Source: Caldisericia bacterium | Lineage (GTDB): Bacteria > Caldisericota > Caldisericia > JAAYUI01 | DNA: 64,000 nucleotides | Direction of reading: 5' to 3' | Assembly (NCBI GenBank): GCA_963674785.1 | Contig: OY771555.1 | Location: 1,632,001 to 1,696,000 of the forward strand | Shown here: one piece after another, positions 37,939 through 56,000 of the stretch | Position numbering within the stretch: position 1 is the stretch's first letter | How the letters are laid out: each line of letters starts with the position of its first letter | Program-made: the position numbers and the translations under genes | The notes under the pieces: generated by a model | The model's database searches: none | Told to the model about the DNA's origin: nothing | What the model saw: the letters and a program-made list of their open reading frames with translations, nothing else

Positions 37939-40900
37939 TTACGGCTCCATCTTCAATGTCATCGTAATAGTCTTTGTTGCACCATCCCATCCAACCTCTG
38001 CTCCAAGTGCCTCAGCAATAAACCTAAATGGTAACATTGTAGAACCTGAAACAATCTGAGGTGCTGGACTAACCTTTCTAGATTCATTATTAACCATAGC
38101 ATCCTCAGAGTTTACATAGAGTATAATAGTTGAATCACCAAGAGTAATAATAACAGACTTAGTAGAAGCAACCCATTCAACTTCAGCACCAAATGCCTCA
38201 GATACAGCCCTTACTGGAACCATAGTGCTTCCAGAGATAACTGTTGGAGGAGGATTAATACTTTTATCTTCACCAGATACTGTCATCACATTAGAACCAA
38301 TCTGCATAGTAACAACTAACTCATAAAGGTTTGTAACAGAAATACTTGTCCTTGTCTCATTATCGGACATATCCGTTGCTATCACTTCAAACTCATTGAT
38401 GCTTGGAGCTGCTTCGACTGGGACAGTTGCTATATAGATGTACTCTGATCTATCTTCATCTTCAACAGGATCCTTTATGGTAGGATCTGTTATTTCATCA
38501 GATGGCTCTATCTCATCATTTTCATCAATTGGTTCCTCGACTACCTCATCAGGATCAGTATCTTCAGATTCATCGTCCACGTCTTCTTCCTCGACCGTTT
38601 CCTCATCGGGTTCAGCCAGTGGGTCAATCGCCTCGATTTCACCGACCATCACAACACAAGGTTCGTCAGTTGTTATTCTTATTTCACATTCGGATGCGTT
38701 TACAAGTTCTCCAACTTCAATATCAATAATTTCAGGTGAGACATCATCGGGTGGAGTAACAAAAGTTATTGGGATTTCGATGTGTCCACCTTTTCTCCAA
38801 GACAAAACGACATTTCCATTATAGGTTTTTCCAAGTTTCAGTCCCTCTGTGTTTATGGAAACTGAAAGTTTTTCGTCTTTCATTTTTTCGAGTGTAAACT
38901 CTTCTGGTTTAACTGTTAACCATGGAGCATCTGTGTCTGCAGTTACGTCTACCCATATTGATGCAGTATTGTTTATAAGGATTGAATCTTCAAAATCAAA
39001 CTCTTCATTAAGTCTAAGTTCTTCAAGCTCCAATTCATTTGGACTAGCTTGTGGTCCTTTGGTTTTTACTTTTACCAGAACCTCAGAAGTCCCATATCCC
39101 CAGTCGACACTAATCTTTGTCTGAAGTTCGGCACCCAATGTAAGCTCTGTGCTTTCAAGACTTAAAACCAGCATTCCTGAACCTTTGCTAATCATCTTGA
39201 ATTTATCATGATCAAGAGAAAGCCAACCACATTCGTTTTCAAGTTTGACTGTGATTGGTTTAATAGATTTATTTTGGATTACCAATTCTATCTGTGGGTT
39301 TTCATCAACATCTATTAGACCAAAATCAACTTCTGTTTCGAATTCTGGATCGATTTCAGCAACTACCTCAATGCTAACCGTGGTTTTTACGGTTCCAATA
39401 GTTATGGTTATCTCGCAAGTTCCAACTGCTTTTGCTTCAATTGTTCCATCTTCGGAAACTGTACAGATTTCTTCATCGCTTGATTCAAAAATGAGTTCAG
39501 GATTAGGAATAGTGTAGCCATTTTCATCTTTTACACTTAAATCAAGAGCAAGTGTGTCTTCAATCTCTATTGTTATTTTTTCTTCATCAATTTTAATCTC
39601 AGCAGGATCACCGATTGGTGCACCTTTGAAGTTATAGATTCTTTGAGAGCCTTCACCTTCAGTCATTACCAAAACCCTGCCGTCGGCAATAGCAATATTT
39701 CCGATTGGTTCACCTTTTAATCTGTCATACTTCCAAGTAACATCTCCCATTCTTTCAATATCAAGCCTATAAATGGTAGAAAAATCATCATCTTCATTTG
39801 AAGCCGCAACAAATAGACCTCCATTTGTCACAATGCAGTCTAGCTGTATAGTTCCGCTAAGATGTTTTTTCCATTTTACAACATATTTATCTAGTGATGT
39901 ACAAATCACATCGCCGTCATGTGTTGCAAACATTAGTGCATCCTCAGTTACTGCGAAAGAGCTATATATCTCGGATTTGAACTCAGTCTTCCATACTTCT
40001 TTTTTTGTTTTAATATCAAGGCATGCGATTGTTGAGTTTTCGATTTTTCCATTCTCAAGCTCTTCATCGGTTCTCTTTTTTGCCTTGTTAACAAACAGAT
40101 ATTTTTCGTTCGCGGCTAATCCTCTATACATGTAATCATCTGATTCATTGAGAGACCATTCTTTTTTATTAGTTTTTTTATTCAAGCAAATCGTATCACC
40201 ATTATTGCTTATGATAATGTACTTATCGGTGACTATTGGGTGTGTTTCTAAAACGAATGCATCTTCGTCGGTATATATCAATTCTGCTTCTTTGCTAGAG
40301 GTTGGCATGGCGTATAAAGAGTTTTCAAAGGTGAAGTATATAGTATCATCAAATACTGTCGGTTGAGGTTGGGTATATATTGTGGTAAAGTTGAAGAGAT
40401 CATCGTTGATGATTTCTTCGAAAGTTTTCCTTCCTGTGTCTTGGTTAACGCTGCTTATCCCCTCAGGTGTTCCAAAGTAAATGCTACCATCATGCCTTAC
40501 GATAGAACAATCCTCGGCAAGCTCCTCTTCGGTTGTATTCCACCTTTTCTTAAATGTTTGAAGATTGTGGCAATACAAGTCTTCTCCTCTAAGAACAATC
40601 TTGTTATCGAAGGCATAGACATTCCTAATCTCATCTTTTGTGTTTATCTTCTGCTCCCACTCAAGATCTAAAACAGGTGAAATTGGAGCACATGGACTGT
40701 CAATTGAGTTTGAGTCGTAACTGTCTGAGTTAAGCTCATTCCACCCGTCACATTCTGTGAAATCTCCTTGTGAGCCGTCATCAGGTCTCTTGATATAGGC
40801 GTCAACACTTATATCTTTTGAGTTCCCATCCCATTTAACCGTGATTTTTCCGTATAAGATGTTTTCATCCTTAGGAATTCTATCATAATCAAGTGTAACA

Positions 40901-42333
40901 TTCACAGACATTTTTTTACCGGTATTGATTTTTAATTCGTCTTTTGATAGTTTTATCCATGATTTATTTGCAGAGAGTTCGTATGTTTGTGTTTCCTTTG
41001 AATCATTTTTTATTTCAAGCTTTCTGGTGATTGTCTCTCCCAACTCAATACTACCAAAATCTATAGAGGTTGGATTAATACTTATATTTGGGAGCCCATA
41101 ACACTCTACGCTGTCTGTTGTCGTTACATAAACTTTTCCATCGTAAATTGCTGGTGATGTTGAATAAAGAGCAATTGAGCTTGAAGACCAAAGCTTGTCG
41201 CCAGTTTTTTTGTTGTATACACAGAATTCAAATCCGCTTGTAACATATAAGTAGTCTCCACATATTGATGGAGATGACATCGTGTAGTCTGAAGAATCTT
41301 CCCAAACCAACTCCCCAGTTTCGGCATTTATACACAGAAGTGAAAAATTGCTAAAAAAAGAGAAATCTGCGGCATCTGTGAGTGAGCCCGTTATGACATA
41401 CACATACTTACCATCAGTAGACGGTTTGTTCCAAACCTTTTCATCTGTTTTGTATTCCCATTTATAATCTTTGTCTTTGATATCGTAAGCGTAAAGATTT
41501 TTTTTGTCTGAGCCAACATATAGAACTCCATCGTGATATGTAAGAGATGATCCATAAAGATCTTTGTTTACTTTTTTCCCAGTGTGTGATGATCTTCCTG
41601 TGCTGGCGTCTATGCCCCTAATTTCACCCAACATATCGACGAAATAAAGAGAACCCCCACCCTTTGCCATCGAACATGCGGCAGGAGCATAAGATTGTTT
41701 CCATTTTTTTGTTCCGTTTTTGATAGAATATGAATAGTAGTTTCCGAAGGTGTCGTTAAAGTATGCTGTATCACCATTGCTTAAAGGGGATGCCAAAAGA
41801 AATACACTATCAGCCTTAAGTTTCCAATCAATTTTTCCTGTGGCGGCTTTATAGCAAACTGCATAGCATTTATCATTTATGGAAGACTCTTTCTCAATAT
41901 CTGGAGTGGTTAAATAAAGAACTCTTCCATTATCATAAACTGGAGTTGTATTACTTCCGTATCCAGTTACAAGATCGTCTTCCCAGATAACTTTTCCTGT
42001 ATCTGCATCCAAGCAATATGCATCACCTTTTTTTGAATCCCCATATTTTACTGTAGAAACAAAAACTTTGCCATCAGCGACGATTGGAGAACCAAAACCA
42101 AGATTCTCGTTAAAAGGCGTTGACCAAAGCTTTTTAAACTGCTTGAAGTCATTATCACTTGACGCCAATGGTCCACAGCTTTCATTTATTTCAGATGTTC
42201 TTTCAGGGTTGCAGCCAAACATCGGCCAATCACAAGTGATTTCTTTTGCTGTAGCTTTATTAAAACTGATTCCGCTACCAAAAATGAGCGACAGGACAAG
42301 CAAAAAGCACAAGATCGATTTAACAGGTTTCAT
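37939..42333 (-). CDS. Large secreted double PQQ-like beta-propeller protein with Ig-like and stalk domains (paralog B)
   Basis: Same architecture as 33502-37722; DWPMFGCNPERTS; acidic insertion near the C-terminus. Confidence 0.87.
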   Translation of the reverse strand: MKPVKSILCFLLVLSLIFGSGISFNKATAKEITCDWPMFGCNPERTSEINESCGPLASSDNDFKQFKKLWSTPFNENLGFGSPIVADGKVFVSTVKYGDSKKGDAYCLDADTGKVIWEDDLVTGYGSNTTPVYDNGRVLYLTTPDIEKESSINDKCYAVCYKAATGKIDWKLKADSVFLLASPLSNGDTAYFNDTFGNYYSYSIKNGTKKWKQSYAPAACSMAKGGGSLYFVDMLGEIRGIDASTGRSSHTGKKVNKDLYGSSLTYHDGVLYVGSDKKNLYAYDIKDKDYKWEYKTDEKVWNKPSTDGKYVYVITGSLTDAADFSFFSNFSLLCINAETGELVWEDSSDYTMSSPSICGDYLYVTSGFEFCVYNKKTGDKLWSSSSIALYSTSPAIYDGKVYVTTTDSVECYGLPNISINPTSIDFGSIELGETITRKLEIKNDSKETQTYELSANKSWIKLSKDELKINTGKKMSVNVTLDYDRIPKDENILYGKITVKWDGNSKDISVDAYIKRPDDGSQGDFTECDGWNELNSDSYDSNSIDSPCAPISPVLDLEWEQKINTKDEIRNVYAFDNKIVLRGEDLYCHNLQTFKKRWNTTEEELAEDCSIVRHDGSIYFGTPEGISSVNQDTGRKTFEEIINDDLFNFTTIYTQPQPTVFDDTIYFTFENSLYAMPTSSKEAELIYTDEDAFVLETHPIVTDKYIIISNNGDTICLNKKTNKKEWSLNESDDYMYRGLAANEKYLFVNKAKKRTDEELENGKIENSTIACLDIKTKKEVWKTEFKSEIYSSFAVTEDALMFATHDGDVICTSLDKYVVKWKKHLSGTIQLDCIVTNGGLFVAASNEDDDFSTIYRLDIERMGDVTWKYDRLKGEPIGNIAIADGRVLVMTEGEGSQRIYNFKGAPIGDPAEIKIDEEKITIEIEDTLALDLSVKDENGYTIPNPELIFESSDEEICTVSEDGTIEAKAVGTCEITITIGTVKTTVSIEVVAEIDPEFETEVDFGLIDVDENPQIELVIQNKSIKPITVKLENECGWLSLDHDKFKMISKGSGMLVLSLESTELTLGAELQTKISVDWGYGTSEVLVKVKTKGPQASPNELELEELRLNEEFDFEDSILINNTASIWVDVTADTDAPWLTVKPEEFTLEKMKDEKLSVSINTEGLKLGKTYNGNVVLSWRKGGHIEIPITFVTPPDDVSPEIIDIEVGELVNASECEIRITTDEPCVVMVGEIEAIDPLAEPDEETVEEEDVDDESEDTDPDEVVEEPIDENDEIEPSDEITDPTIKDPVEDEDRSEYIYIATVPVEAAPSINEFEVIATDMSDNETRTSISVTNLYELVVTMQIGSNVMTVSGEDKSINPPPTVISGSTMVPVRAVSEAFGAEVEWVASTKSVIITLGDSTIILYVNSEDAMVNNESRKVSPAPQIVSGSTMLPFRFIAEALGAEVGWDGATKTITMTLKMEP
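37940..38424. repeat. 485-bp direct repeat, copy 2
   Basis: Reads identical by eye to 33503-33987. Confidence 0.92.
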
Positions 42334-42564
42334 AGATTCCTCCGGGATTTTTTGAGACTAAACATATCAGATTTGAAATATCAAAGAATTTCAAACAATA
42401 TTCACTTTTTTGACACCTAATCTAAGACTATTTATCCTCACTGACCTCCAATTGTCTTTAATGGTTTAAATACTACGACTCAATATAAGAAAATCAACCC
42501 AGGTAGATTCAAGTTATTAACAAACTGTAAATTTTTACAAAAAAATTGTTCGAATTGTTATAAA

Positions 42565-42598
42565 AAAAGCGACCCACATACGCTAAGGGGTCGCTTTT
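42565..42598 (-). terminator. Terminator of the rpoB-EF-G2-rpoC operon
   Basis: AAAAGCGACCC...GGGTCGCTTTT; the A-run gives a U-tract on the minus strand. Confidence 0.8.
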
Positions 42599-42618
42599 GA
42601 TTTTAAAAAAAAATTCAA

Positions 42619-45600
42619 TTATGAAGCTGGGGTTTCCTCAACTTCCATTATTACCTGTTCATCATCGTTTTCATGTTCTGAGACCACTTCGTATCCAAGG
42701 TAGTCCTCGATACCCGTTCCCGATGGAATCAATTGACCAACAATAATAGCCTCTTTGAGACCATGGATTGGGTCAATCTTTCCTTCTGCGGCTGCTTTGG
42801 AAAGCACCCTTGGAGTTTCCTGGAAACTTGCGGCTGAAAGGAATGAATCTGACGTGATAGCTGATTTTGTTACCCTTTGAAGGACTGGCTCGAATGTTAC
42901 AGGTTTTTTATTCTGGCTTTCAAGCATTCTATTTACTTCTTCGACCTCGAGTTTGTCATGGATTTCCCTTGGAATAAGATCAGAATCACCAGGATCGTTG
43001 ATTTGTACACGCCTCAACAGCTGATGGATGATTATTTCAATATGTTTGTCGTTAATATCCTGACCTTGAGATTTGTAGACCTTCTGAATTGAGGTGATCA
43101 GGTATTTTTGAGTTGCATTCATACCTTTGATCCTAAGAAGTTCATGAGGGTCAACCGGACCATCTGAAAGGTTTTGTCCTGCTTCAATTTCATCACCATC
43201 TGCAACAAGAAGTCTGACAGTGTGTGGAAGCTTATATGTTTTCTTTGTATCATCTTTGCTTGTGATTGTTATGTTCACAATATCCTGTTCTTGTTCAAGA
43301 CTCACAACACCAGAGATATCAGAGATTGGTGCCTCACCTTTTGGTTTTCGGGCTTCAAAGAGCTCCTCAACCCTTGGAAGACCAGATGTAATATCTAATC
43401 CAGCAGCACCACCAGAGTGGAATGTTTTTAGTGTGAGCTGTGTTCCAGGTTCTCCGATTGATTGAGCGGCAACAACGCCAACAGCTTCACCCATATCAAC
43501 AAGGTTTCTTGTTGATAGGTCTCTGCCATAGCATTTTGCACAAACACCCATACCGCTCTTACATGTCATTGGTGATCTTACAACAACGTGTCTTATTCCA
43601 GATTTAACTATTTCTGTGACAGCCTTTTCATCAATAATTTCGTTGTAAGGAACAACGACTTCTGCTTTGCCATTTGCAACATTGATCTCTGTGTATCCGA
43701 GGGCTTTTGCTTTCTTAAGAGTTGTTGCAGAAATCTTGCTTCCAGCCTCGTAAATCACCTCATCACGATTCATGATGTCCTGGGCAAGTGTGTCGCCGAC
43801 GATTTTTTTGTCATCAACTGAATGAGTTTTGAACTTCCAAACTTTTATATCTTCGGCAGCAGTTCTACCAAGGATTCTCTCATCGAGTTCTTCTACTATA
43901 GAATTTTCATCATATAGAGGTGTAAGTGTGATTCCTGTGATTGAGTCAACAACAACTGCTTCTTTTACACCCGCATCATCCAATTCCATAGCTTTTTTAT
44001 ACGTAATCTTTTTCCCGGCTTTGACGATTACTTCGCCAGTTAATGGGTCGTTTATATCTTCGTGAGCCTTCTTACCAACGGCCTGAATTGAGATTGGTTT
44101 GATAACTTTGCCTGCAACTATGATTGGTTTGATAACACTTTCTGTGCAATCTCTTTCTCTGATGATGACATCATGAGATACATCAACAAGTCTTCTTGTG
44201 AGGTACCCAGCATCAGAGGTTCTAAGAGCTGTGTCAGCAAGTCCCTTTCTTGTTCCTGATGTTGAGATGAAATATTCGAGAATATCGAGACCCTCTTTGA
44301 AGTTCGATTTGATTGGGAACTCAATAATCTTATTTGTTGGGTCAGCCATCAGACCTTTCATTCCACAGAGCTGACTGAGCTGTCCGGGGCTTCCACGAGC
44401 GCCGGATGTAACCATCATGTGAATTGGGTCGCCATCTTTGAAGTAAGTAGAAACCTTCTCTTTAATATCATCGGAAGCATCACGCCAAAGATCAACTACA
44501 CTTTGGTATCTTTCATCTTCTGAGATGAGTCCCTGTTCGTAGTATTCAAAAATTGAGTCGATTTTTTTCTCATTGGCTTTGATGATCTCGTCTCTTGCGG
44601 GAGGGATTACTAGATCAGAAACGCTCATTGAAATTCCGCCAGCAGTTGCCCACTCGAAACCTGTTTCCTTGATTTTATCAAGCAAAACTGCGGTAACAGC
44701 AGAACCATTGAGCCTGAAGCACTCAAGAATCTGACTCCTAAGATTATTTTTTGTCATGGATTCATTGTAGTAGGGTAGATTCCATTTTCCTGTGTATGAG
44801 TCATCGTTTGCCTGTCGGTAGACTCGACCCCTGTGAGCAACAGTAGGTTCAAGGGCTTCTCTGATGATTCCGTTGTAAAGCGCTTGTCCAACTGATGTTG
44901 TAATTGTGGTGCCGTTTCTGTCTGTTACTTCGTAGAGTTTTCCGTTTTCTCTGTAAGATTCACCGTATGGAATTCTGAATTTGATTCCATCTCGAAGCTT
45001 GAAATATCCGTGGTTATAGGCGTTATTGATTTCGTAGAAGTTGTTATAGATTTTTTCATCTGGCTCGGTGGTTGGACCCATTGTAAGATAGTAAGAGCCG
45101 AGAATAATATCTTCCTGAGGCATCATGACGGGGTTACCAGATGCTGGTGAAAGAATGGATCTTGAAGAAAGCATTAGAACCCTTGTTTCCATCTGGGCAG
45201 AAAGTGTTAGAGGAACATGAACAGCCATCTGGTCACCGTCAAAGTCGGCGTTGAAAGGGTCACAGACAAGAGGTGGGATCTGGATAGCTTTTCCTTCGCA
45301 AAGGATTGGGTCGAATGCTTCGATTCCGAGTCTGTGAAGTGTTGGAGCACGGTTGAGTAGAACTGGATGACCTTTTACAACTTCTGAAAGAATCCTGTAA
45401 ACCTCAGGATTTCTTTGTTCAACCATCGATCTGGCTTGTCTTAAGCTCTGTGTTAAACCACTTCTTACGAGTCCTTCCATCACGAAAGGTTTGAAAAGCT
45501 CAAGAGCCATTTCCTTAGGGATGCCGCACTGGTCAATCTCGAGTCTCGGATTAACAACGATTACAGAACGACCTGAGTAGTCAACACGTTTTCCAAGGAG

Positions 45601-46572
45601 GTTCTGTCTAAATCGACCTTCTTTTCCTTTGAGGGTATCAGAAAGTGATTTAAGTGGTCTGTTTGCTGTACCAAGGATTGGTCTATCTCTTTTTGAGTTG
45701 TCAAAGAGTGCGTCAACTGATTCCTGAAGCATTCGTTTTTCATTCTGAATCATGATGTCAGGAGCTTTGACTTCCATGAGCTTTTTGAGTCTTGTATTTC
45801 TGTTGATAACTCTCTGGTAAAGATCATTAAGGTCGGCGGTTGCAAATCTTCCACCATCAAGCTGAAGAAGTGGTCTGAGGTCTGGTGGGATTACAGGGAT
45901 AACATCAAGTATCATGTTTGTTGGTGTACGATTTGTATCCTTAAACGCTTTGATAACCTTGAGTCTTTTGATTGCTTTGGCTTTTTTCTGTTTTGAGGTT
46001 TCTTCAAGAACTAAAAGAAGTTCCTCTTCAAGTTTGTCAAGATCGATTTCTGAAAGAAGATCGATGATTGCCTCAGCACCTTTTTTTGCAACAAAATCAT
46101 ATTGCCTACTGTACTCACGGTATTCTTCATCTGTGAGAAGTTGCATCTTCTTAAGTGGTGCATCCATTGGGTCAACAACGACATAATTGATGAAGTAAGC
46201 AATCTTTGTGAGGACTTTGCTGGTAACGTTCAAAAGAAGTGCGATATAATGAACTGTTTTGAGATACCATGTGTGAACAACAGGTGCTGCTAGCTCGATA
46301 TGTCCAAAGCGTTCACGTCGGACTTTGTTGATTGTTACCTCAACACCACATCTATCACAGATGACGCCCTTATATCTGGCACCCTTAAATTTACCACAGC
46401 GACATTCATAATCTCTCTGTGGTCCAAAAATCTTTTCACAGAAGAGTCCGTCTGGCTCTGGCTTGAAGTTTCTGTAAGAGATGGTCTCTGATTTTTTGAC
46501 CTCTCCATGACTCCAAGACCTAATCTCTTCTGGTGAGGCAAGCAGTATCCTTACTGCTGTGTTTTTCTCCAC
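42619..46572 (-). CDS. rpoC: DNA-directed RNA polymerase beta' subunit
   Basis: Zn finger CRCG...CDRCG; GRFRQNLLGKRVDYSGR; NRAPTLHRLG; catalytic FNADFDGDQMAVH; GTG start behind AAGGGAG. Confidence 0.99.
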   Translation of the reverse strand: MEKNTAVRILLASPEEIRSWSHGEVKKSETISYRNFKPEPDGLFCEKIFGPQRDYECRCGKFKGARYKGVICDRCGVEVTINKVRRERFGHIELAAPVVHTWYLKTVHYIALLLNVTSKVLTKIAYFINYVVVDPMDAPLKKMQLLTDEEYREYSRQYDFVAKKGAEAIIDLLSEIDLDKLEEELLLVLEETSKQKKAKAIKRLKVIKAFKDTNRTPTNMILDVIPVIPPDLRPLLQLDGGRFATADLNDLYQRVINRNTRLKKLMEVKAPDIMIQNEKRMLQESVDALFDNSKRDRPILGTANRPLKSLSDTLKGKEGRFRQNLLGKRVDYSGRSVIVVNPRLEIDQCGIPKEMALELFKPFVMEGLVRSGLTQSLRQARSMVEQRNPEVYRILSEVVKGHPVLLNRAPTLHRLGIEAFDPILCEGKAIQIPPLVCDPFNADFDGDQMAVHVPLTLSAQMETRVLMLSSRSILSPASGNPVMMPQEDIILGSYYLTMGPTTEPDEKIYNNFYEINNAYNHGYFKLRDGIKFRIPYGESYRENGKLYEVTDRNGTTITTSVGQALYNGIIREALEPTVAHRGRVYRQANDDSYTGKWNLPYYNESMTKNNLRSQILECFRLNGSAVTAVLLDKIKETGFEWATAGGISMSVSDLVIPPARDEIIKANEKKIDSIFEYYEQGLISEDERYQSVVDLWRDASDDIKEKVSTYFKDGDPIHMMVTSGARGSPGQLSQLCGMKGLMADPTNKIIEFPIKSNFKEGLDILEYFISTSGTRKGLADTALRTSDAGYLTRRLVDVSHDVIIRERDCTESVIKPIIVAGKVIKPISIQAVGKKAHEDINDPLTGEVIVKAGKKITYKKAMELDDAGVKEAVVVDSITGITLTPLYDENSIVEELDERILGRTAAEDIKVWKFKTHSVDDKKIVGDTLAQDIMNRDEVIYEAGSKISATTLKKAKALGYTEINVANGKAEVVVPYNEIIDEKAVTEIVKSGIRHVVVRSPMTCKSGMGVCAKCYGRDLSTRNLVDMGEAVGVVAAQSIGEPGTQLTLKTFHSGGAAGLDITSGLPRVEELFEARKPKGEAPISDISGVVSLEQEQDIVNITITSKDDTKKTYKLPHTVRLLVADGDEIEAGQNLSDGPVDPHELLRIKGMNATQKYLITSIQKVYKSQGQDINDKHIEIIIHQLLRRVQINDPGDSDLIPREIHDKLEVEEVNRMLESQNKKPVTFEPVLQRVTKSAITSDSFLSAASFQETPRVLSKAAAEGKIDPIHGLKEAIIVGQLIPSGTGIEDYLGYEVVSEHENDDEQVIMEVEETPAS

Positions 46573-46587
46573 GAGATACTCCCTTCC

Positions 46588-48672
46588 TTATGCCTGGTTC
46601 TCTTTTTCAAGTTTTGCTTTTGCGATGACTTCTTCAGAAAGTTTTGGAGGAGCAATTTCGTAGTGATCAAATTCCATGAAGAATGAGCCACGTCCACCTG
46701 TGATCTGGTTGAGGTCGATTGCATATCTCTGAACCTCATAAAGAGGTGCTTCAGCGCTGATGACCTGTGTTCCTGCTGAAACTTCAGAACCAAGAATTCT
46801 TCCTCTCTTTGAGGAAATATCACCCATGATATCACCCATGTACTGATCTGGGACTGTGATTGTCATCTTGTAGATTGGCTCAAGGATAACAACGGTTGAT
46901 TCTTCCATTGCTTTTCTATAGGCAAGGTTTGCAGCCATTTTGAATGCCATTTCTGATGAGTCAACGGCGTGGTATGAACCATCATCAACGTTTACGTGAA
47001 TATCAACAACTGGGAATCCAGCGAGTCTACCTTCAAGGATTGCTTCTCTCCAGCCCTTCTCGATTGCAGGAAGGTAGTTTTTTGGAATTGATCCACCAAA
47101 GATTGTTTCTGTGAACTTGAAACCTTCGCCTCTTGGCAATGGTTTAACTTCACACCAGCAATCACCAAACTGACCATGTCCACCTGTCTGTTTTTTGTGT
47201 CTTCCCTGAACTCTGACAGGTTTTGTGATTGTCTCTCTGTATGGGATTTTTGGAATCTCAAGACCAATGTTTACACCGAATTTTTCAGAAAGTTTCTGAA
47301 CAGATGCCTGAAGATGGGCTTCTCCAAGTCCGCCAAGGAGGGACTCTCTGGTGTCCTCTGTTCTTCTGTAGGAGAGACTTGGGTCTTCTTCGATGAGTTT
47401 CTTGATTGCAGTACCAATTTTGTCTTCGTCTGATTTGGTTTTTGCCTTCATACTCATCTCAAGAACTGGTCTTGGGAAGTCGATTTCTTCAATTTTGATT
47501 GAATTGGCTTTATCGGCAAGTGTGTCGTTTGTAAGGGTAACTGCAAGTTTTGTCAAAACACCAATGTCGCCTGCTGCAACAAAGTCAACTGCTTCCTGTT
47601 TTTTGCCAAATGGAACACCGATAGCACTGATTCTCTCTGGCTTATCTTTGTTAATGTTTATTGGTTTTGCATTTGAGTCCATTTTGCCAGTTACAACTTT
47701 GTAGTAACTAACTCTTCCAACAAATGGGTCTGCTGATGTTTTAAAGACAAGTGATGAAAGAGGTTTTCCTTCATCGTATGCAACTTCAATTTCTTTACCT
47801 GAGGTGTCTGTTGCTTTTTCTGCTGGTCTTGCGTCTGCTGATGGAAGAAGATTTACCACACCATCAAGAATGTTTGTGACACCGATATTGTTTGTGCTTG
47901 ATGCAGCAAAAATAGGATACACGAGTCCATCTTTAATGGCTTTATTTAAAGCAGAAATAAGCTGTTCTGGTGAAGGTTCTTTGTCTTCAAGATATGCTTC
48001 CATAAGTGCTTCGTCTGTCTCGACAACAACCTCAACAAGACTTGCATAATATTCATCACGTTTGGAAACGAGGTCTGCTGGGATGTCTTCGGCTTTCATT
48101 TTCTTGCCGTTGTCTGTGAATGTGTAGGCTTTTCCGGACACTACATCGATAACACCTTTGAAGTTCTCAGCCTCACCCCATGGGAATGTGAGAACCAGTG
48201 CTGATTTTGAAAGATTCTCTGTGATTCCTTCAAGAGCCTCGTCAAAGCTAGCATTTTCTCTATCCATTTTGTTGACGACAATAAATCTTGGAAGATTTCT
48301 GTCTTCACAGAGTTTCCACATCTTTTCAGTTCCAACCTGAACTCCGCCAAGAACGTCAACAAAAATCATTGCTGAATCTGCTGCTCTGATTCCTGAAAGA
48401 GCCTCGCCAAGAAAGTCAAAGAAACCGGGAGTGTCAATAATGTTGATCTTTGTGTTTTTGTGGACAACTGGAGCAACGGTCATGTTGATTGAAATGCCTC
48501 TTTTGATTTCCTCTGGATCAAAATCTGAAATCGTGTTTCCAGATGCGGTTGATCCCATTTTATCAATGGCACCAGAATTAAAAGCAGCTGCTTCAATCCA
48601 TGTTGTTTTACCGGCTCCACCGTGTGAGCAAAGCACTACGTTTCTAATGTCTTTTGTTTCAAATGTCTTCAT
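46588..48672 (-). CDS. fusA: Elongation factor G-like protein (EF-G2 type)
   Basis: Full EF-G architecture; G1 SHGGAGKTT, G2 RGISI, G3 DTPGFFDF, G4 NKMD; domain IV KKQTGGHGQFG and DGSYHAVDSSEMAFK. Confidence 0.92.
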   Translation of the reverse strand: MKTFETKDIRNVVLCSHGGAGKTTWIEAAAFNSGAIDKMGSTASGNTISDFDPEEIKRGISINMTVAPVVHKNTKINIIDTPGFFDFLGEALSGIRAADSAMIFVDVLGGVQVGTEKMWKLCEDRNLPRFIVVNKMDRENASFDEALEGITENLSKSALVLTFPWGEAENFKGVIDVVSGKAYTFTDNGKKMKAEDIPADLVSKRDEYYASLVEVVVETDEALMEAYLEDKEPSPEQLISALNKAIKDGLVYPIFAASSTNNIGVTNILDGVVNLLPSADARPAEKATDTSGKEIEVAYDEGKPLSSLVFKTSADPFVGRVSYYKVVTGKMDSNAKPININKDKPERISAIGVPFGKKQEAVDFVAAGDIGVLTKLAVTLTNDTLADKANSIKIEEIDFPRPVLEMSMKAKTKSDEDKIGTAIKKLIEEDPSLSYRRTEDTRESLLGGLGEAHLQASVQKLSEKFGVNIGLEIPKIPYRETITKPVRVQGRHKKQTGGHGQFGDCWCEVKPLPRGEGFKFTETIFGGSIPKNYLPAIEKGWREAILEGRLAGFPVVDIHVNVDDGSYHAVDSSEMAFKMAANLAYRKAMEESTVVILEPIYKMTITVPDQYMGDIMGDISSKRGRILGSEVSAGTQVISAEAPLYEVQRYAIDLNQITGGRGSFFMEFDHYEIAPPKLSEEVIAKAKLEKENQA

Positions 48673-48690
48673 ATAAAATTCCTTCCTTGG

Positions 48691-51600
48691 CTATTCGTTC
48701 TTATCCATTATGCTTTCGAGTTCTTCCTCGAAATCAAGTGTTTCTGCTGTTGGTACATCCATCTCATCACTATCCATGAGACCTTCTCCGTCAGGAAGTT
48801 CAACAATCATCTGAGGCTCATCGGATTTTTGCATCTCTTGAGTATCGATATGGTGTAGGTCAATACAGAGTCCTTTAAGTTCTCTCTGAATAACCTTGAA
48901 TGATTCAGGTGTTCCTGATTCTGGGATTGGTTTACCTCGACAGATTGCTTCGTATGCCTTAATTCTTCCTTCAGTATCGTCAGATTTAAGGGTAAGCATT
49001 TCTTTAAGAGTATGTGCTGCTCCGTATGCCTGAAGTGCCCAAACTTCCATTTCACCAAGTCTCTGTCCACCAAATTGAGCTTTTCCGCCCAATGGCTGTT
49101 GAGTGATAAGAGCATATGGACCAGTTGACCTTGCGTGGATTTTGTCTTCAACAAGATGGTCAAGTTTCAAAATATATGCGTAACCAACGGTTACTCTCTG
49201 ATGGAATGCTTCACCTGTATATCCATCATAGAGTGTCATTTTGCCATCAGTTGGAAGCCCCGCTTTTTCAAGAGTATCAAATACATCCTGCTCAGATGCT
49301 CCATAGAAAACTGGTGTTGCAAAATACACACCGAGTTTTTTTGCAGCAAAGCCGAGGTTTGTTTCGTAGACCTGTCCGAGATTCATTCGGGAGTGGACAC
49401 CAAGTGGTGAAAGGATGATGTCGACGGGAGTTCCATCTTCCATGTATGGCATGTCATATCTTGGTAGAATTTTTGAGATAACACCCTTGTTTCCGTGTCT
49501 ACCTGACATCTTATCGCCGACCTGGATTTTTCTCTTTTGGGCAACATAAACTTTTGCCTGCATGTTGACACCCACCGGAAGCTCATCAGATTTCTCGCGT
49601 TTGTAAAGCTGTGTATCAATTACGATTCCGGTTTCACCTGGGTCAACTCGTTTTGAAGAGTCTCTGACATCTTGTCCTTTTCTGTCAAACATCGCACGCC
49701 AAAGCTTCATCTCCGGAGTAAACTCTGATTCAGCCTTTGGGGTTACTTTTCCAACAAGAATGTCGCCTGGTCCAACTTCAGTACCAATTCTGATAATTCC
49801 ACGATCATCAAGATTTTTCAGAAGTTCTTCAGAGACATTTGGAATCTCTCGTGTGAGTTCCTCTGGACCAACCTTGGTATCCCTTACCTGATGTTTGTAT
49901 TCTTTGATATGTATTGAGGTGTATACATCATCATAAACTAGTCTTTCATTAATGATGATAGCATCAAGATAGTTGAAACCTCTCCACGGAAGATATGCAA
50001 CGAGAACGTTCTGACCGATTGCAAGATCGCCTCTGTCGCATGCCTGACCATCAATGATTACATCACCGGCTGATACAAAGTCACCCTTTCTTACGAGTGA
50101 ATGCTGGTTGATACAGATATCCTGGTTTGATCTGAAGAATTTCTGGAGTGAATATGTGCTTTCATGTGAGACCTTAAGCTCGTCAACACCCGATCCTGCG
50201 AGCTTTTTAAGGAGATCCATTGTAAGATAAGAGCCTTGATATGCGATGACCTCATCGCCTTCTTCAATATCTTCGGCAAGAATTCTTGATGATTCGAGAA
50301 GATGTCCGTCAAATACAAACACATCATTTTCCTCAAGGGACATGATGTCAACAATTCTTATTGTCTCTACATCATTTGTCAAAAGCTGTCTGATTACATC
50401 TTCAGTTAGAAATGAAGAGTCGATCTGTTCGTAGGTTTTTGATTCTTTTGCATCTGGGAGAAGAATCTTACCAAGGAAACTACTCTTTTTTGCGCCTATC
50501 TTAAGACTAGATACAGGAAGAACTTCTGTTGAATCCTCAAGGTGTACTGAAACCTCATTAATATTTGCTTTGAAAAGCTTTTCAAGCCCCGCTTTGGTGA
50601 GTTTCTTCTCTGCTGCGATGACTGTTTTTCCAGTTGAATCAAGTGCTGGTTCTGCAAGCTTAAGACCAATTAGATTAATGTTCTTCTCAATACTAACAAA
50701 TTCCTGTAGGTTTATTGTTTCAACGTCGTCACGTCTGATTGTTCTTACTTTGAAATGGTTTTCCTGGACAAGCTTTCTTGCAACCGATCCATCAATAAGT
50801 TCACCGATTCTGCCAATTCCTTCGATATCTTCGCCAAGGAATCTATACAGGATGTCGCGGTTTACTGTACCAAGCTGGAAATTCTCAGGAGGAGCGTCAA
50901 GTGATGCAATCTTAATTGTTCCAGCATCGACGTATGAGACAACTCCGGATTCCTTTGCAAGAACAACTGAGCAGTTATCCACAACAATCCTGTGTTCCAT
51001 TCCAGTTCCAACTCTTGGTGCCTCTGGCTGAATAAGTGGAACAGCCTGATGCTGCTGGTTACATCCCATAAGAGCCCTTTTTGCGTCGTTATGTTCAAGG
51101 AACGGAATCAACGATGCAGCAACAGAGAAAACCTGGTTTGGTGAGATGTCAATATAATCAATCTCTTTACCAGGTATTTCTGAGAATGATGATTTGTATC
51201 TGGTTATGTTTTCACCAATGATTTCTTCGTCTTTGGTAAGCTCGGTGTTGGCCTGAGCGATTTTGAAGGTTTCTTCGTCATCGGCAAGAATATAATCGGA
51301 TTCATTTCCAACAATGCCATCTTTTACCCTAAGGTATGGAGCCTGAATAAAACCATATCTATCAATAATTGCATATGTTGCAAGGGAGTTGATAAGTCCA
51401 ACGTTTCCACCTTCTGGGGTTTCGATTGGACAGATTCTACTGTAGTGTGAGTTGTGGACGTCTCTAACATCAGCACCGGCGCGTTCTCTGTTGAGTCCGC
51501 CTGGCCCAAGTGATGAGAGTTTTCTTTTGTGTGTGATTTCTGCAACAGGGTTTGTTTGATCCATGAACTGTGAAAGCTGTCCAAGTCCAAAGAATTCTTT

Positions 51601-52890
51601 GATTGCGACAGTTATAGGTCTGACATTAATGATATTCTGAACAGTGAGGTCTTCATCAGGTAATGTGATGATCTTTTCCCTGACGATCTTGAGCATCCTG
51701 AGGAAACCAATACGAAGTTTATTGGAAAGTAGCTCACCAACCGATCGGACTCTCTTGTTTGCAAGATGATCCTTATTGTCAGGGTCAACGTTTCTTAGAT
51801 GGAGCTGATAGAGGTGATGAAGAATAGCACGGATATCTTCAAGAGTTACGAGGTTTGAATCAAGGTTTAGACCAAGCTTCTTGTTGATTTTGAATCTACC
51901 AACATCTGAAAGATTATTTCTTCTTGGATCCCTTAAGAATGTGTGGATGAGGTTCTCAGCATTTTCTGTAGTTGGACGTTCACCTGGTCTGATATGCTTA
52001 AACATATCAATAAGGGCTTCTTCACGTGTTTTTGTTTGATCCGCTTCGAGTGTGTGAACAATAAAGTCTGCAATGTCTGTATCGTTATAATGAATGTTTT
52101 CAATATCCAAACGTTTAATTTCATCGACGATGATTGGTGTGAGAGTTGTTCCTTCTGGGTAGAGATCGTGTCCTGTTGTAGGATGGAGAATCATTTCTGC
52201 AAGAGTTTTGCCTTGCACTCTCTGAAGCATATCTTTGTCAGCTACGTTTGCAGTGACAACAATTTCTTCGATAAAAAGCTCTTTGATTTCATCATCGGTG
52301 TAATCACCCATGACTCTCAAAAGCTCAGTGACAGGGAATTTTTTGGATTTCTTGTCAATTTTAACGTAGGCGATCTTATCATCATCCATCTCGAATTCGA
52401 GCCACGAACCACGATCAGGAATGACAGTTGCCATAGCTTTCGGTCTAACTGATGTGTGGATTTTTTCGTACTCAAAATAAACTCCTGGAGCTCTGACAAG
52501 CTGAGAAACAACAACCCTTTCAACGCCATTAACAATGAAGGTTCCTGCTTCTGTCATCTGGGGAAGCTCACCACAGAAAAGCTCCTGCTCCTTAATTTCA
52601 CCAGTTTCCTTGTTGATAAGTCGAACGGTTAATTTAAGGGGTACAGTAAATGTTAAATTTCTAGCTTTACATTCGAGTGGAGTGTGAGTTGGACTGCCAA
52701 GACTATAATCAACAAATTCAACCTCAACTTTTCCTGATTCACGAAGTGATCGATCCTGATTAAGTGACTCGATAAGGAAACGTAAATCCTCATCAAGAAA
52801 TCGCTGATACGAGTCGAGTTGAATGTTAATAAGATTTGGCGGTTCGCTCTTTGGTCTACGTTTGCTAAACCAAACCCGGTCTATTCTCAT
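48691..52890 (-). CDS. rpoB: DNA-directed RNA polymerase beta subunit, with lineage-specific insertions
   Basis: NGVERVVVSQL, QLSQFMDQTNP, CPIETPEG, GDKMSGRHGNKG, KIHARSTGPY, GGQRLGEMEVW. Confidence 0.99.
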   Translation of the reverse strand: MRIDRVWFSKRRPKSEPPNLINIQLDSYQRFLDEDLRFLIESLNQDRSLRESGKVEVEFVDYSLGSPTHTPLECKARNLTFTVPLKLTVRLINKETGEIKEQELFCGELPQMTEAGTFIVNGVERVVVSQLVRAPGVYFEYEKIHTSVRPKAMATVIPDRGSWLEFEMDDDKIAYVKIDKKSKKFPVTELLRVMGDYTDDEIKELFIEEIVVTANVADKDMLQRVQGKTLAEMILHPTTGHDLYPEGTTLTPIIVDEIKRLDIENIHYNDTDIADFIVHTLEADQTKTREEALIDMFKHIRPGERPTTENAENLIHTFLRDPRRNNLSDVGRFKINKKLGLNLDSNLVTLEDIRAILHHLYQLHLRNVDPDNKDHLANKRVRSVGELLSNKLRIGFLRMLKIVREKIITLPDEDLTVQNIINVRPITVAIKEFFGLGQLSQFMDQTNPVAEITHKRKLSSLGPGGLNRERAGADVRDVHNSHYSRICPIETPEGGNVGLINSLATYAIIDRYGFIQAPYLRVKDGIVGNESDYILADDEETFKIAQANTELTKDEEIIGENITRYKSSFSEIPGKEIDYIDISPNQVFSVAASLIPFLEHNDAKRALMGCNQQHQAVPLIQPEAPRVGTGMEHRIVVDNCSVVLAKESGVVSYVDAGTIKIASLDAPPENFQLGTVNRDILYRFLGEDIEGIGRIGELIDGSVARKLVQENHFKVRTIRRDDVETINLQEFVSIEKNINLIGLKLAEPALDSTGKTVIAAEKKLTKAGLEKLFKANINEVSVHLEDSTEVLPVSSLKIGAKKSSFLGKILLPDAKESKTYEQIDSSFLTEDVIRQLLTNDVETIRIVDIMSLEENDVFVFDGHLLESSRILAEDIEEGDEVIAYQGSYLTMDLLKKLAGSGVDELKVSHESTYSLQKFFRSNQDICINQHSLVRKGDFVSAGDVIIDGQACDRGDLAIGQNVLVAYLPWRGFNYLDAIIINERLVYDDVYTSIHIKEYKHQVRDTKVGPEELTREIPNVSEELLKNLDDRGIIRIGTEVGPGDILVGKVTPKAESEFTPEMKLWRAMFDRKGQDVRDSSKRVDPGETGIVIDTQLYKREKSDELPVGVNMQAKVYVAQKRKIQVGDKMSGRHGNKGVISKILPRYDMPYMEDGTPVDIILSPLGVHSRMNLGQVYETNLGFAAKKLGVYFATPVFYGASEQDVFDTLEKAGLPTDGKMTLYDGYTGEAFHQRVTVGYAYILKLDHLVEDKIHARSTGPYALITQQPLGGKAQFGGQRLGEMEVWALQAYGAAHTLKEMLTLKSDDTEGRIKAYEAICRGKPIPESGTPESFKVIQRELKGLCIDLHHIDTQEMQKSDEPQMIVELPDGEGLMDSDEMDVPTAETLDFEEELESIMDKNE

Positions 52891-52965
52891 AAGACTCCCT
52901 TTCCATGCCTATAGCCTCTCTAGAGCATAGCCATAGCAATTGCTGGGCATTATAATCGAATAGCA

Positions 52966-52994
52966 ATATTAATAGACCCAGCACACGGAGTCAA
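52966..52994 (-). promoter_or_regulatory. Probable rpoB promoter
   Basis: Minus strand TTGACT, 17 bp, TAATAT, ~75 bp upstream of rpoB. Confidence 0.55.
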
Positions 52995-53078
52995 CAATAT
53001 ATGGTTAAGCACTTCTAACTAAGTAAAAGTGCTTGAGTTTTTAAATTTAGATAGACTATAGCAAGAAGTTGAAAAAAA

Positions 53079-56000
53079 TCAAGGCATCCAAATTCTAGCT
53101 ATAGTAATCTCGCCAGTAACAGCATTTGTTGTAATTTCGCAATCGAATACTTGCTCAACTATTTCAGGTGATATGAAAAGCATGCCATTTTCGATTGTTG
53201 GTGTTGATGGAAGTGTTATTGATTCACCCGAAACAAGACCATCTCTACTTCCGTTTTCAAAAACATATTTGTTTCCAAAAAGGTTAACTTCACATATTCC
53301 AAGGGACTCAATAACCTTATATTCAGCACCAAAAAGGGATTCAAAGATAGAAATGGGAAGTTTATTCACACTTGTTACTGGATTTCTAAGTTGACCAATT
53401 GGTAACCCTTCACTATCAACAATACTTGCCTCACCAACAATAAGTTTACCCCATATCCTCTTATAAACAGGGATAATCATTGTTTTTTCAGTGATATTTC
53501 CAGCAGCATCTATTACATTGAACTTGATTTCATTCTTACCTGGGATCAACTGAACATCAACTGAGAACATATCGTAAACAACCTTTGCAGGTTGCCCATT
53601 CGCGGTGACAACACAATTTGGTTCAACTCTTCCTTTAAGGGTAAATGTCTGTTTTCCAATAAGTTCTGGCAGTTTTGGTAGAAGAATCTCAGGAGGAATT
53701 GCATCAACGGAAATTGTAACAACCTTTGAGGTTGGTGGAAGATTTCCAACAGTTGAGATGATGTTGATAGTATTTATTCCATCAACAAGAGTAACAGATG
53801 TTTCGAATCTTCCAGTTGATGAAACTGTGACTTTTGTACCATTGATTCTAAGGTCTGCTCCTGGCGTAGTTTCTCCGCTGATTTTTGTTGTGTAAGAGTT
53901 TGTTATTGTTCTCACCTCGTCGATAATTAGATGCGGAGGTGTAGTCTGTGGACCAGGTCTTAGAGAAAGGTCTCCAGAAACATAACCACCTGCAGTTGCG
54001 GTGACAATAAGCTTGGTGTCTTTTTCGGGCACAAATGTAAACTCGATATCTCCAGTAACGTTTGTTGTTCCATCAAGGTCTATTTCTCCACCCTGGATTC
54101 TAACTCTTGCATTTTCAACCAATGCTCCAGTTGAGATATCGACAATTTTAAGTTTAACAGTATTTTCTACACTTTCGGTGATCGTCTCTGGCTCAACAAG
54201 TTTGATCTGCAAACCTGGTGAGGAGTCAAATGAGCTTATTGGATAAATTGAGTAATATTGTGGGGAATCTGCAAGTGTTAGGTTGTATGGTTCAGCATTC
54301 AACCATGTATTTGGGCATTTGTATCCAAGATAGATAACCTCTTCACCATGTCCTGTTGGTGTAAGTGTCATATAGGTAACTGGATGGATGTTGTTGTCCA
54401 ACATAACAAACCCACCCTGAGAAAGCTCATTATGGTTTGCGCCACTTGCGATAATTGATGACCCTTGTTCCATAGGAAGATCTCTGTCATCGGCGGGATG
54501 AAGTTCAATGAGGAGTGGGTTATCAACACCATATGCGAGGTCAAATGATGCAGGGTCAAATAGTTCTGAACTCAGAGGTTTGCCTGTTCTTGCAGATTTG
54601 AGAGTGATTTTTGGTGCTGCAACTTTGAGAAGATTTCCTGACATTGCATCCCAGTCAAGGAAGAATGTTCCATCTCTGCTACCCATATCTGAGCCTGCAA
54701 GAGCATATCCAGTTGTGAAATACTTGTATCTTGTCCCAATAAAGCCTGGGTCTGTATAGTATGGGAGTGGTGCACCAGCGACATCACCAAACTTTGTGCT
54801 TGCTGAGTACGGGTTACATCCTACAAGTCCACCAATCAGACAAACATCTTCTGCAAAAATTGTAAACGAGCATGATCCGAGTTCATCAAGAGGCAGATAG
54901 TCATGGAAGTTAATCAAACCGTCTTTGTGTCTGTCTGCAAACAGATATGTTCCTTCGTAAGGATGGTTGTATATAGCGCCAAGTCCCCATCCCTTTGTTG
55001 TTGTATCCATATCTGTATCAACCATTATCAATGGTTTTCTGGAGAATGTGTTATCTGAGTAGTGTTCATTTGTCGTGGTATAATAAACGGTTGTACCCTG
55101 TCTTACGACATCAGCCGATAGGGTCTCATCGTTCCAGGTGAAGTATTCACGTTTAGTTTTTGCTCCACCAAACAAGAAGATTTCATCATTACCGCTTTGA
55201 ATAACTCCATCCTCATTTGTGTCAAACCCAACATGGACTCCGTAGTTTATTTCACATTCATTGCAAGGGAACCATTGCCTTGGTTTCTGATTTGCAGGGA
55301 CATTAATAAACGGCATAAAGTGAGCTGGATAATTAATGTATTCATTACAAACGCTCATACCTTCAGGCTGTTGAGCGATCAAGGCGCCCTGTGAATTTCT
55401 GCAGGTTGCTGTTATGTTATAAATTCTATTTGATCCCGCTGTAAGAAGGAAGTCTGGTTCAGCAGGCGACATGAATACTTTTTGTTCTGGATCTTGGATG
55501 TTGACGACACTATATTCGACATCAGGTAAGGCAAATTTGACCTTTGTTGTTCCGATATTTCTCCTGTCAGGAGTATAGACTGTTAAGTCAAATTCGCCGG
55601 CATCATTTGCGCAGAATCCTGTAATCTTATAGATACCTTCTTTTGCTCCTGAAAAGTCAACATCGATAGGTTGGAATGCTTGATCTTCCCAATCACTGAA
55701 GAGATAAACATTCTGATGCAAATCAAGTGATAAATTATGAAGGTCAGTTCTTACCCAATAATACTGAGGTAATCTTGCCCCTTTTCCATAGAAAGCTTCT
55801 TGATCAGGATGCCAATCTTTAAAGAGATGTTCAAGTGCCTGGTCTTCTTCTACCTCTCTGTCGCCAAGAACGTCTGGTACCCCTTCGAGTAGGTTTACAG
55901 GATCGCCGAAAGAGTCGGTTACCTTAACTGTCAGTGGTTCAGTTGGACTGACAAGCTCATTAACAACACCTGCTGTAAGAGGTTGAGGAGAAATCTCAAT

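Follow-up and report, generated by a model that had tools for sequence, protein, structure and literature searches.

An EFG II-type elongation factor G paralog between rpoB and rpoC in the class Caldisericia

The rpoB-EFG2-rpoC locus and its spread

In a bacterium of the class Caldisericia, the genes for the beta and beta' subunits of RNA polymerase, rpoB and rpoC, are separated by a gene that encodes a paralog of translation elongation factor G (EF-G), referred to here as EFG2. The DNA examined, called the window below, is a stretch of 64,000 nucleotides (nt) (G000:C1:1632001-1696000) within a single-contig genome of 2.23 Mb, in which a genome search finds rpoB and rpoC in one copy each. The first of the three genes, rpoB (48691..52890, -), encodes a beta subunit of 1399 amino acids (aa) (Pfam/NCBIfam; TIGR02013, 1475 bits). 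Between its TAG stop codon and the ATG start codon of EFG2 lies a spacer of 18 nt (48673..48690, -; TAG-CCAAGGAAGGAATTTTAT-ATG) that contains a Shine-Dalgarno (SD) site, AAGGAAGG. EFG2 itself (46588..48672, -) encodes a protein of 694 aa (P0001). Its TAA stop codon is separated by 15 nt (46573..46587, -; TAA-GGAAGGGAGTATCTC-GTG), again with an SD site (GGAAGGGAG), from the GTG start codon of rpoC (42619..46572, -), which encodes a beta' subunit of 1317 aa (TIGR02386, 1546 bits). Both junctions were read directly, and either one is too short for a promoter or a terminator.

About 20 nt past the rpoC stop codon, an intrinsic terminator (42562..42598, -; direct reading and folding) consists of a 7-bp G+C stem (GCGACCC / GGGTCGC) followed by T7. 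Its folding energy is -19.9 kcal/mol (z = -3.86), a stability matched by 0/200 shuffles. Candidate terminators inside the genes outnumber those in shuffled sequence (17 vs. 8.9 +/- 3.1), but their stems are weak, and internal termination was not adopted. The intergenic region upstream of rpoB measures 188 nt (52891-53078) and contains a promoter-like site, TTGACT-17-TAATAT (52966..52994, -), which is a consensus match only. Promoter-like sites are not in excess in the region (18, vs. 21.4 +/- 4.7 in shuffles), and the consensus scan finds none less than 1.6 kb upstream of the EFG2 start. Two adjacent TTGACA-17-nt sites (50323-50382, -) are located about 1.65 kb 5' of that start, inside an insert in rpoB; these are likewise consensus matches only, in a region whose count does not exceed chance. 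A search of Rfam across 42000-53500 gave no match at E <= 0.1. A preliminary description of this DNA had listed the open reading frames (ORFs) and their order, the gaps of 18 and 15 bp, the SD sites, the altered GTPase motifs discussed below and a single terminator after rpoC, and each of these is exactly as it had stated.

Sequencing reads agree with the assembled order. A Logan contig of 3845 nt from run X1, which is possibly the source sample, spans 45228-49072 over both junctions with 0 differences, and misassembly, which the preliminary description had named as a danger to its proposal, is not seen. From an independent sample (run X3), a 777-nt contig (47944-48720) with 2 differences covers the EFG2 start, the spacer and 30 nt of rpoB. 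An RNA run (X8) gave short pieces only, and the parts it leaves uncovered carry no meaning.

The arrangement is widespread in the class. Our collection holds 93 genomes of the phylum, 91 of which have a match to P0001; the other two are 74% complete. The C-terminus of rpoB, EFG2 and the N-terminus of rpoC occur in that order in 29/29 loci fetched from relatives of the window's genome, and four further genomes (families f2 and f6) show rpoB-EFG2-rpoC within longer stretches. With the window included, both junctions were verified in 34/34 Caldisericia genomes examined, representing 6 families, so that the recent insertion considered in the preliminary description did not take place. In 21 more genomes rpoB is directly upstream of EFG2, as judged by the coordinates of the rpoB segment and of EFG2.

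Junction distances in the 34 genomes were obtained with a script that located the stop codons and chose whichever start codon lay closest to the place predicted by the alignment, for which reason start positions are approximate. The distance from rpoB to EFG2 ranges from -29 to +26 nt. In 23/34 genomes the two genes overlap, as a rule by ATGA or by 1 nt, which a direct reading also showed. EFG2 and rpoC are 9-78 nt apart, and no more than 18 nt apart in 26/34 genomes. GGAGG-like SD sites precede both EFG2 and rpoC; EFG2 starts with ATG in 30/34 genomes, and rpoC with GTG or TTG in 32/34. Junctions of this kind suggest that rpoB, EFG2 and rpoC are co-transcribed, and that translation of EFG2 is probably coupled to termination at rpoB.

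While the three-gene core is constant, its flanks, as identified with Pfam, have been reshuffled. Family f3 has the order nusG-rplK-rplA-rplJ-rplL-rpoB-EFG2-rpoC, families f2, f4, f5 and f6 (f4 including one complete genome of 1,558,103 bp) have rpoB-EFG2-rpoC-rpsL-rpsG-fusA(-tuf), and family f1, to which the window belongs, has neither flank. Most families have lost rplKAJL on the upstream side, and f1 and f3 no longer have the str operon downstream. The absence of rplKAJL and rpsL-rpsG that the preliminary description had pointed out is real at this locus, where Pfam identifies giant surface proteins as the neighbors of the operon. As a general trait it does not stand; it is a rearrangement of family f1 alone, because f3 has nusG-rplKAJL, and f2, f4, f5 and f6 have rpsL-rpsG-fusA.

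In the sister class (family f7) an ortholog of EFG2, 43-46% identical, is present without rpoB or rpoC alongside (6/6 loci), and rpoB and rpoC are directly adjacent to each other (5/5 genomes). In one sister-class locus (L047:6172-8822, genome G084), EFG2 lies directly upstream of a gene for a fusion of a DtxR-type iron repressor with FeoA, followed by FeoB on the same strand. Outside the phylum, rpoB or rpoC was found near 0/80 other EFG II loci from metagenomes (66/80 of these have at least 500 nt on both sides), and the arrangement occurs in 0/4 loci from Dehalococcoidia and Bacteroidia, a check that is not exhaustive for bacteria. The simplest reading of this distribution is that one ancestral EFG II gene of the phylum moved once into the rpoB-rpoC junction, in the stem of Caldisericia. 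A single move is preferred since an ancestral insertion followed by loss in f7 needs two events. The insertion is a clean, class-defining rare genomic change and a possible marker for the systematics of Caldisericota. A literature search of titles and abstracts found no description of EFG2 between rpoB and rpoC, and the main text of Margus et al. (PMC3150367) contains 0 occurrences of rpoB, rpoC or RNA polymerase.

Two features of the flanking polymerase genes were noted in the course of this survey. In genus g9 (L056/G038 at 11103-11105; also G080), EFG2 and rpoC are in the same frame and a single TAG apart, and together they give the appearance of a 1987-aa open frame. A fusion was rejected, as the TAG stands between them and a separate SD site and TTG start serve rpoC; read-through of this stop would yield a chimera of EFG2 and beta'. 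The second feature is a lineage-specific insert of 246 aa in the beta subunit (residues 664-909; 50164-50901, -), which has no Pfam match (best E = 0.1). A search with the insert of the window matches 52/93 genomes of the phylum, in families f1, f4, f5 and f6. It is not matched in f2, where rpoB is still about 1395 aa long, nor in f7 (0/9). In f3, rpoB is 1141 aa long and the insert is absent, and f3 nonetheless has rpoB-EFG2-rpoC. The rpoB insert does not co-vary with the EFG2 insertion.

The window also encodes six large predicted surface proteins (637-2741 aa; 4250-9475, 13617-15530, 29142-32177, 33502-37755, 37939-42333 and 53079-61304) with NHL or PQQ-like beta-propellers; each has a Cu_amine_oxidN1 domain at its C-terminus, in many cases after a Glucodextran_B domain. 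Cu_amine_oxidN1 looks like a shared C-terminal anchoring module of the lineage, and it also adjoins rpoB in a genome of family f5 (L055). In addition, two tandem S8 subtilases of 1036 aa each (22851-25961 and 26025-29135, +) combine a PA domain with a type I dockerin at the C-terminus; a dockerin is also present in L055:3266-4651.

Class assignment of EFG2 and the canonical factor

P0001 contains GTP_EFTU, EF-G_D2, EFG_III, EFG_IV and EFG_C, all above the Pfam cut-offs, and Pfam finds no domain besides these five EF-G domains. It scores below the cut-off of TIGR00484, which describes canonical EF-G (622.6 vs. 659.4 bits), as well as below those of the Thermus-type EF-G2 equivalog NF009377 (616.9 vs. 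890 bits), of NF058620 (EFG2_Bacteroid; 563.9 vs. 1000 bits) and of NF012153 (ribosomal protection of the Tet(M)/Tet(O) type; 317.2 vs. 775 bits). NF009381, which P0001 passes with 870 bits, was tried as a marker of the paralog and set aside; it is not discriminating, because canonical fusA (761.6 bits) and 10/14 control genomes pass it as well. Since P0001 thus belongs to no discriminating NCBIfam equivalog, the diagnostic positions of Margus et al. (2011) were tested. These were mapped through a phmmer alignment to Thermus thermophilus EF-G and are given in EF-G1 numbering.

According to Margus et al. (PMC3150367), the type I positions, which change from EFG I to EFG II, are 19 (A to G), 28 (T to L), 64 (T to S), 316 (I to T), 360 (A to G) and 379 (G to K/R), and the conserved type II positions are 224 D, 258 V, 272 L, 498 K, 499 K, 543 E and 633 G. 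The type I positions of P0001 read S, W, S, T, G and K, and four of them are exact. At position 28 its Trp is hydrophobic, as compared to Leu in EFG II, and at position 19 it has Ser as compared to Gly. Its type II residues are D, I, I, K, K, E and G (5/7 exact, two conservative), the exact ones including the Lys-Lys of domain IV loop I. Five of these residues are nearly constant across the distinct sequences of the class (n = 34): S61, T312 and K375 are present in 34/34 sequences, and G356 and K493 in 33/34. The canonical fusA products of the phylum (n = 9) have T; I/V/L/T; A/S; G; and I/V at the same positions.

The GTPase motifs are altered as well. In translation the P-loop (residues 16-24; 48601..48627, -) reads SHGGAGKTT, so that Gly stands where canonical AHIDAGKTT has Asp, a replacement described for EFGII (PMC4342817). 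The G2 motif, RGISI, is a relaxed form of RGITI with Ser as its fourth residue. In G3 and switch II (residues 80-87; 48412..48435, -), DTPGFFDF places Phe84, according to the alignment, where the catalytic His is expected. To place these changes among the nearest relatives, 150 sequences were taken from a scan of 1.84 billion cluster representatives and aligned with the query, giving 151 sequences. Gly occupies position 19 in 114 of these and Leu occupies position 28 in 121, while the G2 Ser occurs in 116. The catalytic-His position is mostly aromatic (Y 69, F 37, D 10, A 6, L 6, N 5, H 5, S 5), and because only 5/151 keep His, its loss is the norm of the family. Within the phylum, His is found in 0/40 EFG2 sequences vs. 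9/9 canonical fusA products; class Caldisericia has Y in 22, F in 9, A in 2 and S in 1, and the sister class has F in 4 and L in 2. The claim of the preliminary description that the motif changes mark the EF-G2 class holds. Phe itself is not distinctive, since Y, F, A, S and L all occur in the phylum.

Further motif changes were observed in individual families. In f3 (L023, L026, L029, L030, L032 and L033), NKxD of EFG2 reads SRMD, in which both guanine-specificity residues are changed. In f2 (L035, L038, L061 and L062), the P-loop His is replaced by Gln (GQGG/GQGS). Canonical fusA genes recovered from the f2 loci L061 and L062 have all motifs intact; none was recovered from the f3 loci.

A FastTree phylogeny built from 199 sequences unites the phylum's 40 EFG2 sequences and the representative P0024 in one clade (SH-like support 90), inside which f7 is placed with weak support (48). 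This clade groups with the 150 representatives bearing EFG II motifs, and the 9 fusA sequences stand apart on a split with a support of 94. P0001 alone matches canonical Thermus EF-G over its whole length with 569 bits and T. thermophilus EF-G2 with 472.8 bits. A canonical identity was rejected on the sub-threshold TIGR00484 score, the altered motifs and the position outside the str operon. On its diagnostic residues, the middle gene classifies as a member of the known EFG II/EF-G2 subfamily and not as a str-operon EF-G, which agrees with the class proposed in the preliminary description.

The canonical factor, for which the preliminary description had suggested a search elsewhere, is encoded in the same genome. 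It is located in rpsL-rpsG-fusA-tuf at 1.393-1.397 Mb, 284 kb from rpoB-EFG2-rpoC (fusA at G000:C1:1394140-1396221), and is 36% identical to P0001. The 2.2-Mb genome has two tuf copies (G000:C1:1396266-1397471 and 1497998-1499203), both in the top 2% for codon adaptation. A canonical fusA with AHIDAGKTT, RGITI, DTPGHVDF and NKxD accompanies EFG2 in 10/10 family-f1 genomes checked, the motifs are likewise intact in those operon loci that bear fusA, and nearly all genomes of the phylum hold two EF-G-type matches in a genome search. The f1 fusA is only about 50-52% identical to the fusA of other families; one pair from other families is 69% identical.

Codon adaptation, conservation and proposed role

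The codon adaptation index (CAI) was computed for 1617 non-overlapping ORFs of the genome, using 25 ribosomal-protein-cluster genes as a reference from which fusA and tuf were excluded. EFG2 (CAI 0.750) ranks 10/1617, followed by the two tuf copies (0.741, rank 16/1617, and 0.737, rank 23/1617), and its CAI is high in both halves of the gene. The values for rpoB (0.672, rank 147/1617), rpoC (0.651, rank 240/1617) and canonical fusA, with its GTPase motifs intact (0.635, rank 364/1617), are lower. The CAI of EFG2 is far above those of rpoB and rpoC, which argues for selection on the output of EFG2 itself. From its codon usage, the protein is probably abundant in growing cells.

Sequence conservation was compared between the two paralogs. 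Among 10 genomes of family f1, 40/45 pairs show a higher conservation of EFG2 than of fusA, with means of 70.8% vs. 68.4% identity. Among 9 genomes, the G domain of EFG2 is relaxed (mean identity of 43.4%, vs. 60.8% in fusA), and domain IV is its best-conserved part (70.8%, vs. 58.5% in fusA). Domain IV is the part of EF-G that reaches the decoding centre. In P0001 this domain (PF03764; residues 474-592; 46897..47253, -) contains the RHKKQTGGHGQ loop and the SYHAVDSS motif. The combination of a relaxed G domain with a conserved domain IV is the EFG II pattern of Margus et al., carried further. EFG2 is fixed in the rpoBC operon, joined tightly or with an overlap to rpoB, under strong purifying selection, and written in codons like those of the genes for elongation factor Tu (EF-Tu). 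A housekeeping role through co-expression with RNA polymerase, which the preliminary description had proposed, is plausible in light of the 34/34 genomes, the apparently translationally coupled junctions and a codon adaptation in the top 1%.

We consider it fairly probable that EFG2 is a constitutive, abundant translocation factor of the EFG II type that does not use His-catalysed GTP hydrolysis. According to this model, a vertically inherited EFG II gene moved between rpoB and rpoC in the Caldisericia stem lineage and has been retained since. The rpoB promoter would drive one rpoB-EFG2-rpoC message, which in most families would continue into rpsL-rpsG-fusA-tuf, and EFG2 would be translated by coupling to termination at rpoB. 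The protein would thus be made constitutively and abundantly beside an intact canonical EF-G. It would bind the ribosome like EF-G and promote tRNA-mRNA translocation through its domain IV, the conservation of which speaks for an action of the translocation type and against a simple block. Because the catalytic His is missing and the G domain is relaxed, GTP hydrolysis is proposed to be slow or absent, as in Bacteroides EF-G2. For comparison, multi-turnover translocation is reported to persist in the E. coli EF-G mutant H92A (PMC12775393). Low-GTP translocation, which was also suggested in the preliminary description, is, by analogy with the relatives of EFG2, the best available model. If EFG2 carries a large share of elongation, this would bear on the need for GTP hydrolysis by EF-G (PMC12775393) and on the translation economy of energy-limited anaerobes.

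Several observations weigh against this model. Release of the H92A protein from the ribosome is reported to take about 20 s (PMC12775393). A His-less EF-G would be expected to leave the ribosome slowly, which sits badly with a bulk factor unless it is released otherwise. In addition, T. thermophilus EF-G2 is reportedly a ribosome-dependent GTPase, and a loss of His therefore need not mean a loss of hydrolysis. With regard to conservation, the advantage of EFG2 over fusA in f1 is reversed across families, where mean identity is 50.0% for EFG2 vs. 59.2% for fusA and EFG2 is lower in 35/36 pairs. CAI is a proxy only, and codon selection can be weak in slow growers. EFG2 exceeds fusA in CAI in three of four other genomes (0.703/0.679, 0.796/0.693 and 0.715/0.705) and equals it in one (0.797/0.798), in sets that are small (backgrounds of 36-73 ORFs, and only 11 reference genes in G019). 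An RNA library of a relative of about 91% identity (X9) contains one contig of 2067 nt over the EFG2-rpoC junction and one of 433 nt over the rpoB-EFG2 junction. These lend weak support to co-transcription, as such contigs do not prove a single transcript and the library may contain DNA. As for the class of the protein, the EFG2 tree contained no labelled EFG II reference sequences. By bit score, both P0001 (569 bits) and a profile built from it and its 58 nearest representatives (921 bits) match canonical Thermus EF-G better than they match the EF-G2 structures solved for Bacteroides, Mycobacterium and Thermus (473-788 bits). Lastly, both the function and the expression level of Caldisericia EFG2 are read from genes alone.

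A stronger version of the proposal is that EFG2 is the principal translocase of growing Caldisericia, or one of equal rank, with canonical EF-G as a partner of lower abundance, for example in recycling. We put this forward tentatively, as a possibility on the unlikely side, and it may be clearest in family f1, that of the window. If it were true, a free-living bacterial lineage would carry out its bulk protein synthesis with a factor incapable of the canonical His-activated GTPase mechanism, at a dosage that the operon structure ties to RNA polymerase.

Alternatively, EFG2 could be a ribosome-trapping regulator that holds post-translocation ribosomes and slows synthesis, like its mycobacterial counterpart. 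The two share subfamily traits, the missing His and a relaxed G domain, and Mycobacterium smegmatis EF-G2 (MsmEF-G2) is reported to lack GTPase activity and to trap the ribosome in its post-translocated state (bioRxiv 10.64898/2026.05.25.727771). Such a brake, however, is not expected in the rpoBC operon, in apparent translational coupling and among the ten most codon-adapted genes. Moreover, the decoding-centre loops of domain IV are the best-conserved part of EFG2, whereas those of MsmEF-G2 are reported to be shifted from the tRNA. We therefore regard trapping as improbable. The same degree of doubt applies to the view that the gene order is a frozen accident, in which an ordinary accessory EF-G2 uses the rpoB promoter and its position supplies nothing but transcription. 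The sister-class ortholog works elsewhere, beside DtxR/FeoA-FeoB genes, and EFG II genes occur in many contexts, those of the 80 metagenomic loci included, as would be expected from this view. Against it, the order has been kept in all 34 genomes of the 6 families despite their reshuffled flanks, the junctions stay tight or overlapping, and EFG2 far exceeds rpoB and rpoC in codon adaptation.

A role in transcription-translation coupling, the other function suggested in the preliminary description, found no support. In this case EFG2 would act on the ribosome that trails RNA polymerase, or would bind RNA polymerase itself, and what speaks for it is the gene position together with the translational coupling that would tie EFG2 synthesis to that of beta. 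On the other hand, P0001 has no domain beyond those of EF-G, the sister class keeps its ortholog far from rpoBC, 0/80 other EFG II loci have rpoB or rpoC nearby, and the 246-aa rpoB insert does not co-vary with the arrangement, which f3 has without it. The codon adaptation also suggests far more EFG2 than RNA polymerase would need, and this function is accordingly judged highly improbable. Misassembly, or a recent insertion confined to this genome, can be dismissed as an explanation for practical purposes, given the same order in 33 other genomes of 6 families, the contig over both junctions with 0 differences, and a base composition of the paralog that is the same as that of the adjacent genes.

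Comparison with known EF-G paralogs

The role of EFG II has been called unknown (PMC4342817), and the members studied so far are accessory factors. Caldisericia EFG2 resembles the subfamily as described in having five domains, the G2 Ser, the Thr/Gly/Lys of domain II and the P-loop Gly (PMC3150367; PMC4342817), as well as the Lys-Lys of loop I in domain IV, an EFG I gene that is always present alongside, and a domain IV that is conserved while domains I to III are relaxed (PMC3150367). It differs in that P0001 has Ser rather than Gly at position 19, and in that the window's genus has Trp at position 28, where Leu is given for 99% of the subfamily. EFG II is further described as fast-evolving (PMC3150367), while in family f1 the opposite is found and EFG2 is more conserved than EFG I.

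The EF-G2 of Bacteroides thetaiotaomicron (fusA2, BT2167) is likewise a second EF-G beside an essential fusA (PMC6989115). It is reported to be a slow translocase that acts without GTP hydrolysis (via PMC12775393; bioRxiv 10.64898/2026.05.25.727771). Expression sets the two apart: Bacteroides fusA2 is described as having its own promoter and as nearly silent in growth, whereas Caldisericia EFG2 has no room for a promoter and is part of the RNA polymerase operon. Under carbon limitation, fusA2 is reported to be induced more than 200-fold while fusA falls (PMC6989115). MsmEF-G2 (PDB 9K0Z/9K10) also has an aromatic residue (Tyr98) in place of the His, and its G1, G2, G4 and G5 are altered. It is reported to be without GTPase activity that depends on the ribosome, and substitution H88Y nearly abolishes the GTPase of EF-G1. 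The mycobacterial protein is reportedly dispensable and related to stress; it is said to trap ribosomes and to support neither translocation nor recycling (bioRxiv 10.64898/2026.05.25.727771). In Caldisericia, by contrast, domain IV shows high conservation, and the codons used are indicative of a high constitutive expression.

T. thermophilus EF-G2 is the structural prototype of EFG II and, as mentioned, scores 472.8 bits against P0001. In place of the His it presumably has Tyr. This protein (PDB 1WDT/2DY1) reportedly retains intrinsic and ribosome-dependent GTPase activity as well as translocation (bioRxiv 10.64898/2026.05.25.727771). Split EF-G pairs (the spirochaete spdEFG1/spdEFG2 and the mitochondrial mtEF-G1/mtEF-G2) are similar to the Caldisericia pair in consisting of two paralogs with a possible division of translocation and recycling (PMC3150367). 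However, the split pairs are described as replacing EFG I and as keeping the His (mtEF-G2 His145), while Caldisericia retain EFG I beside a His-less partner.

The three EFG II members studied have thus given three answers, namely an active GTPase in Thermus, a starvation-induced and hydrolysis-free translocase in Bacteroides, and a ribosome trap in mycobacteria. Caldisericia provide a natural case of an apparently constitutive EFG II, in one of the most conserved bacterial operons. As Caldisericum exile is in culture, the role of a His-less, non-stress EF-G is directly testable. The class-wide rpoB-EFG2-rpoC position is what is unusual, and new here are the codon adaptation of EFG2, its conservation above that of fusA within its own family, and the finding that domain IV is conserved best. 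Caldisericia EFG2 is set apart from the paralogs above by being embedded in an operon, by holding the same position throughout a class and by a codon adaptation above that of the canonical factor.

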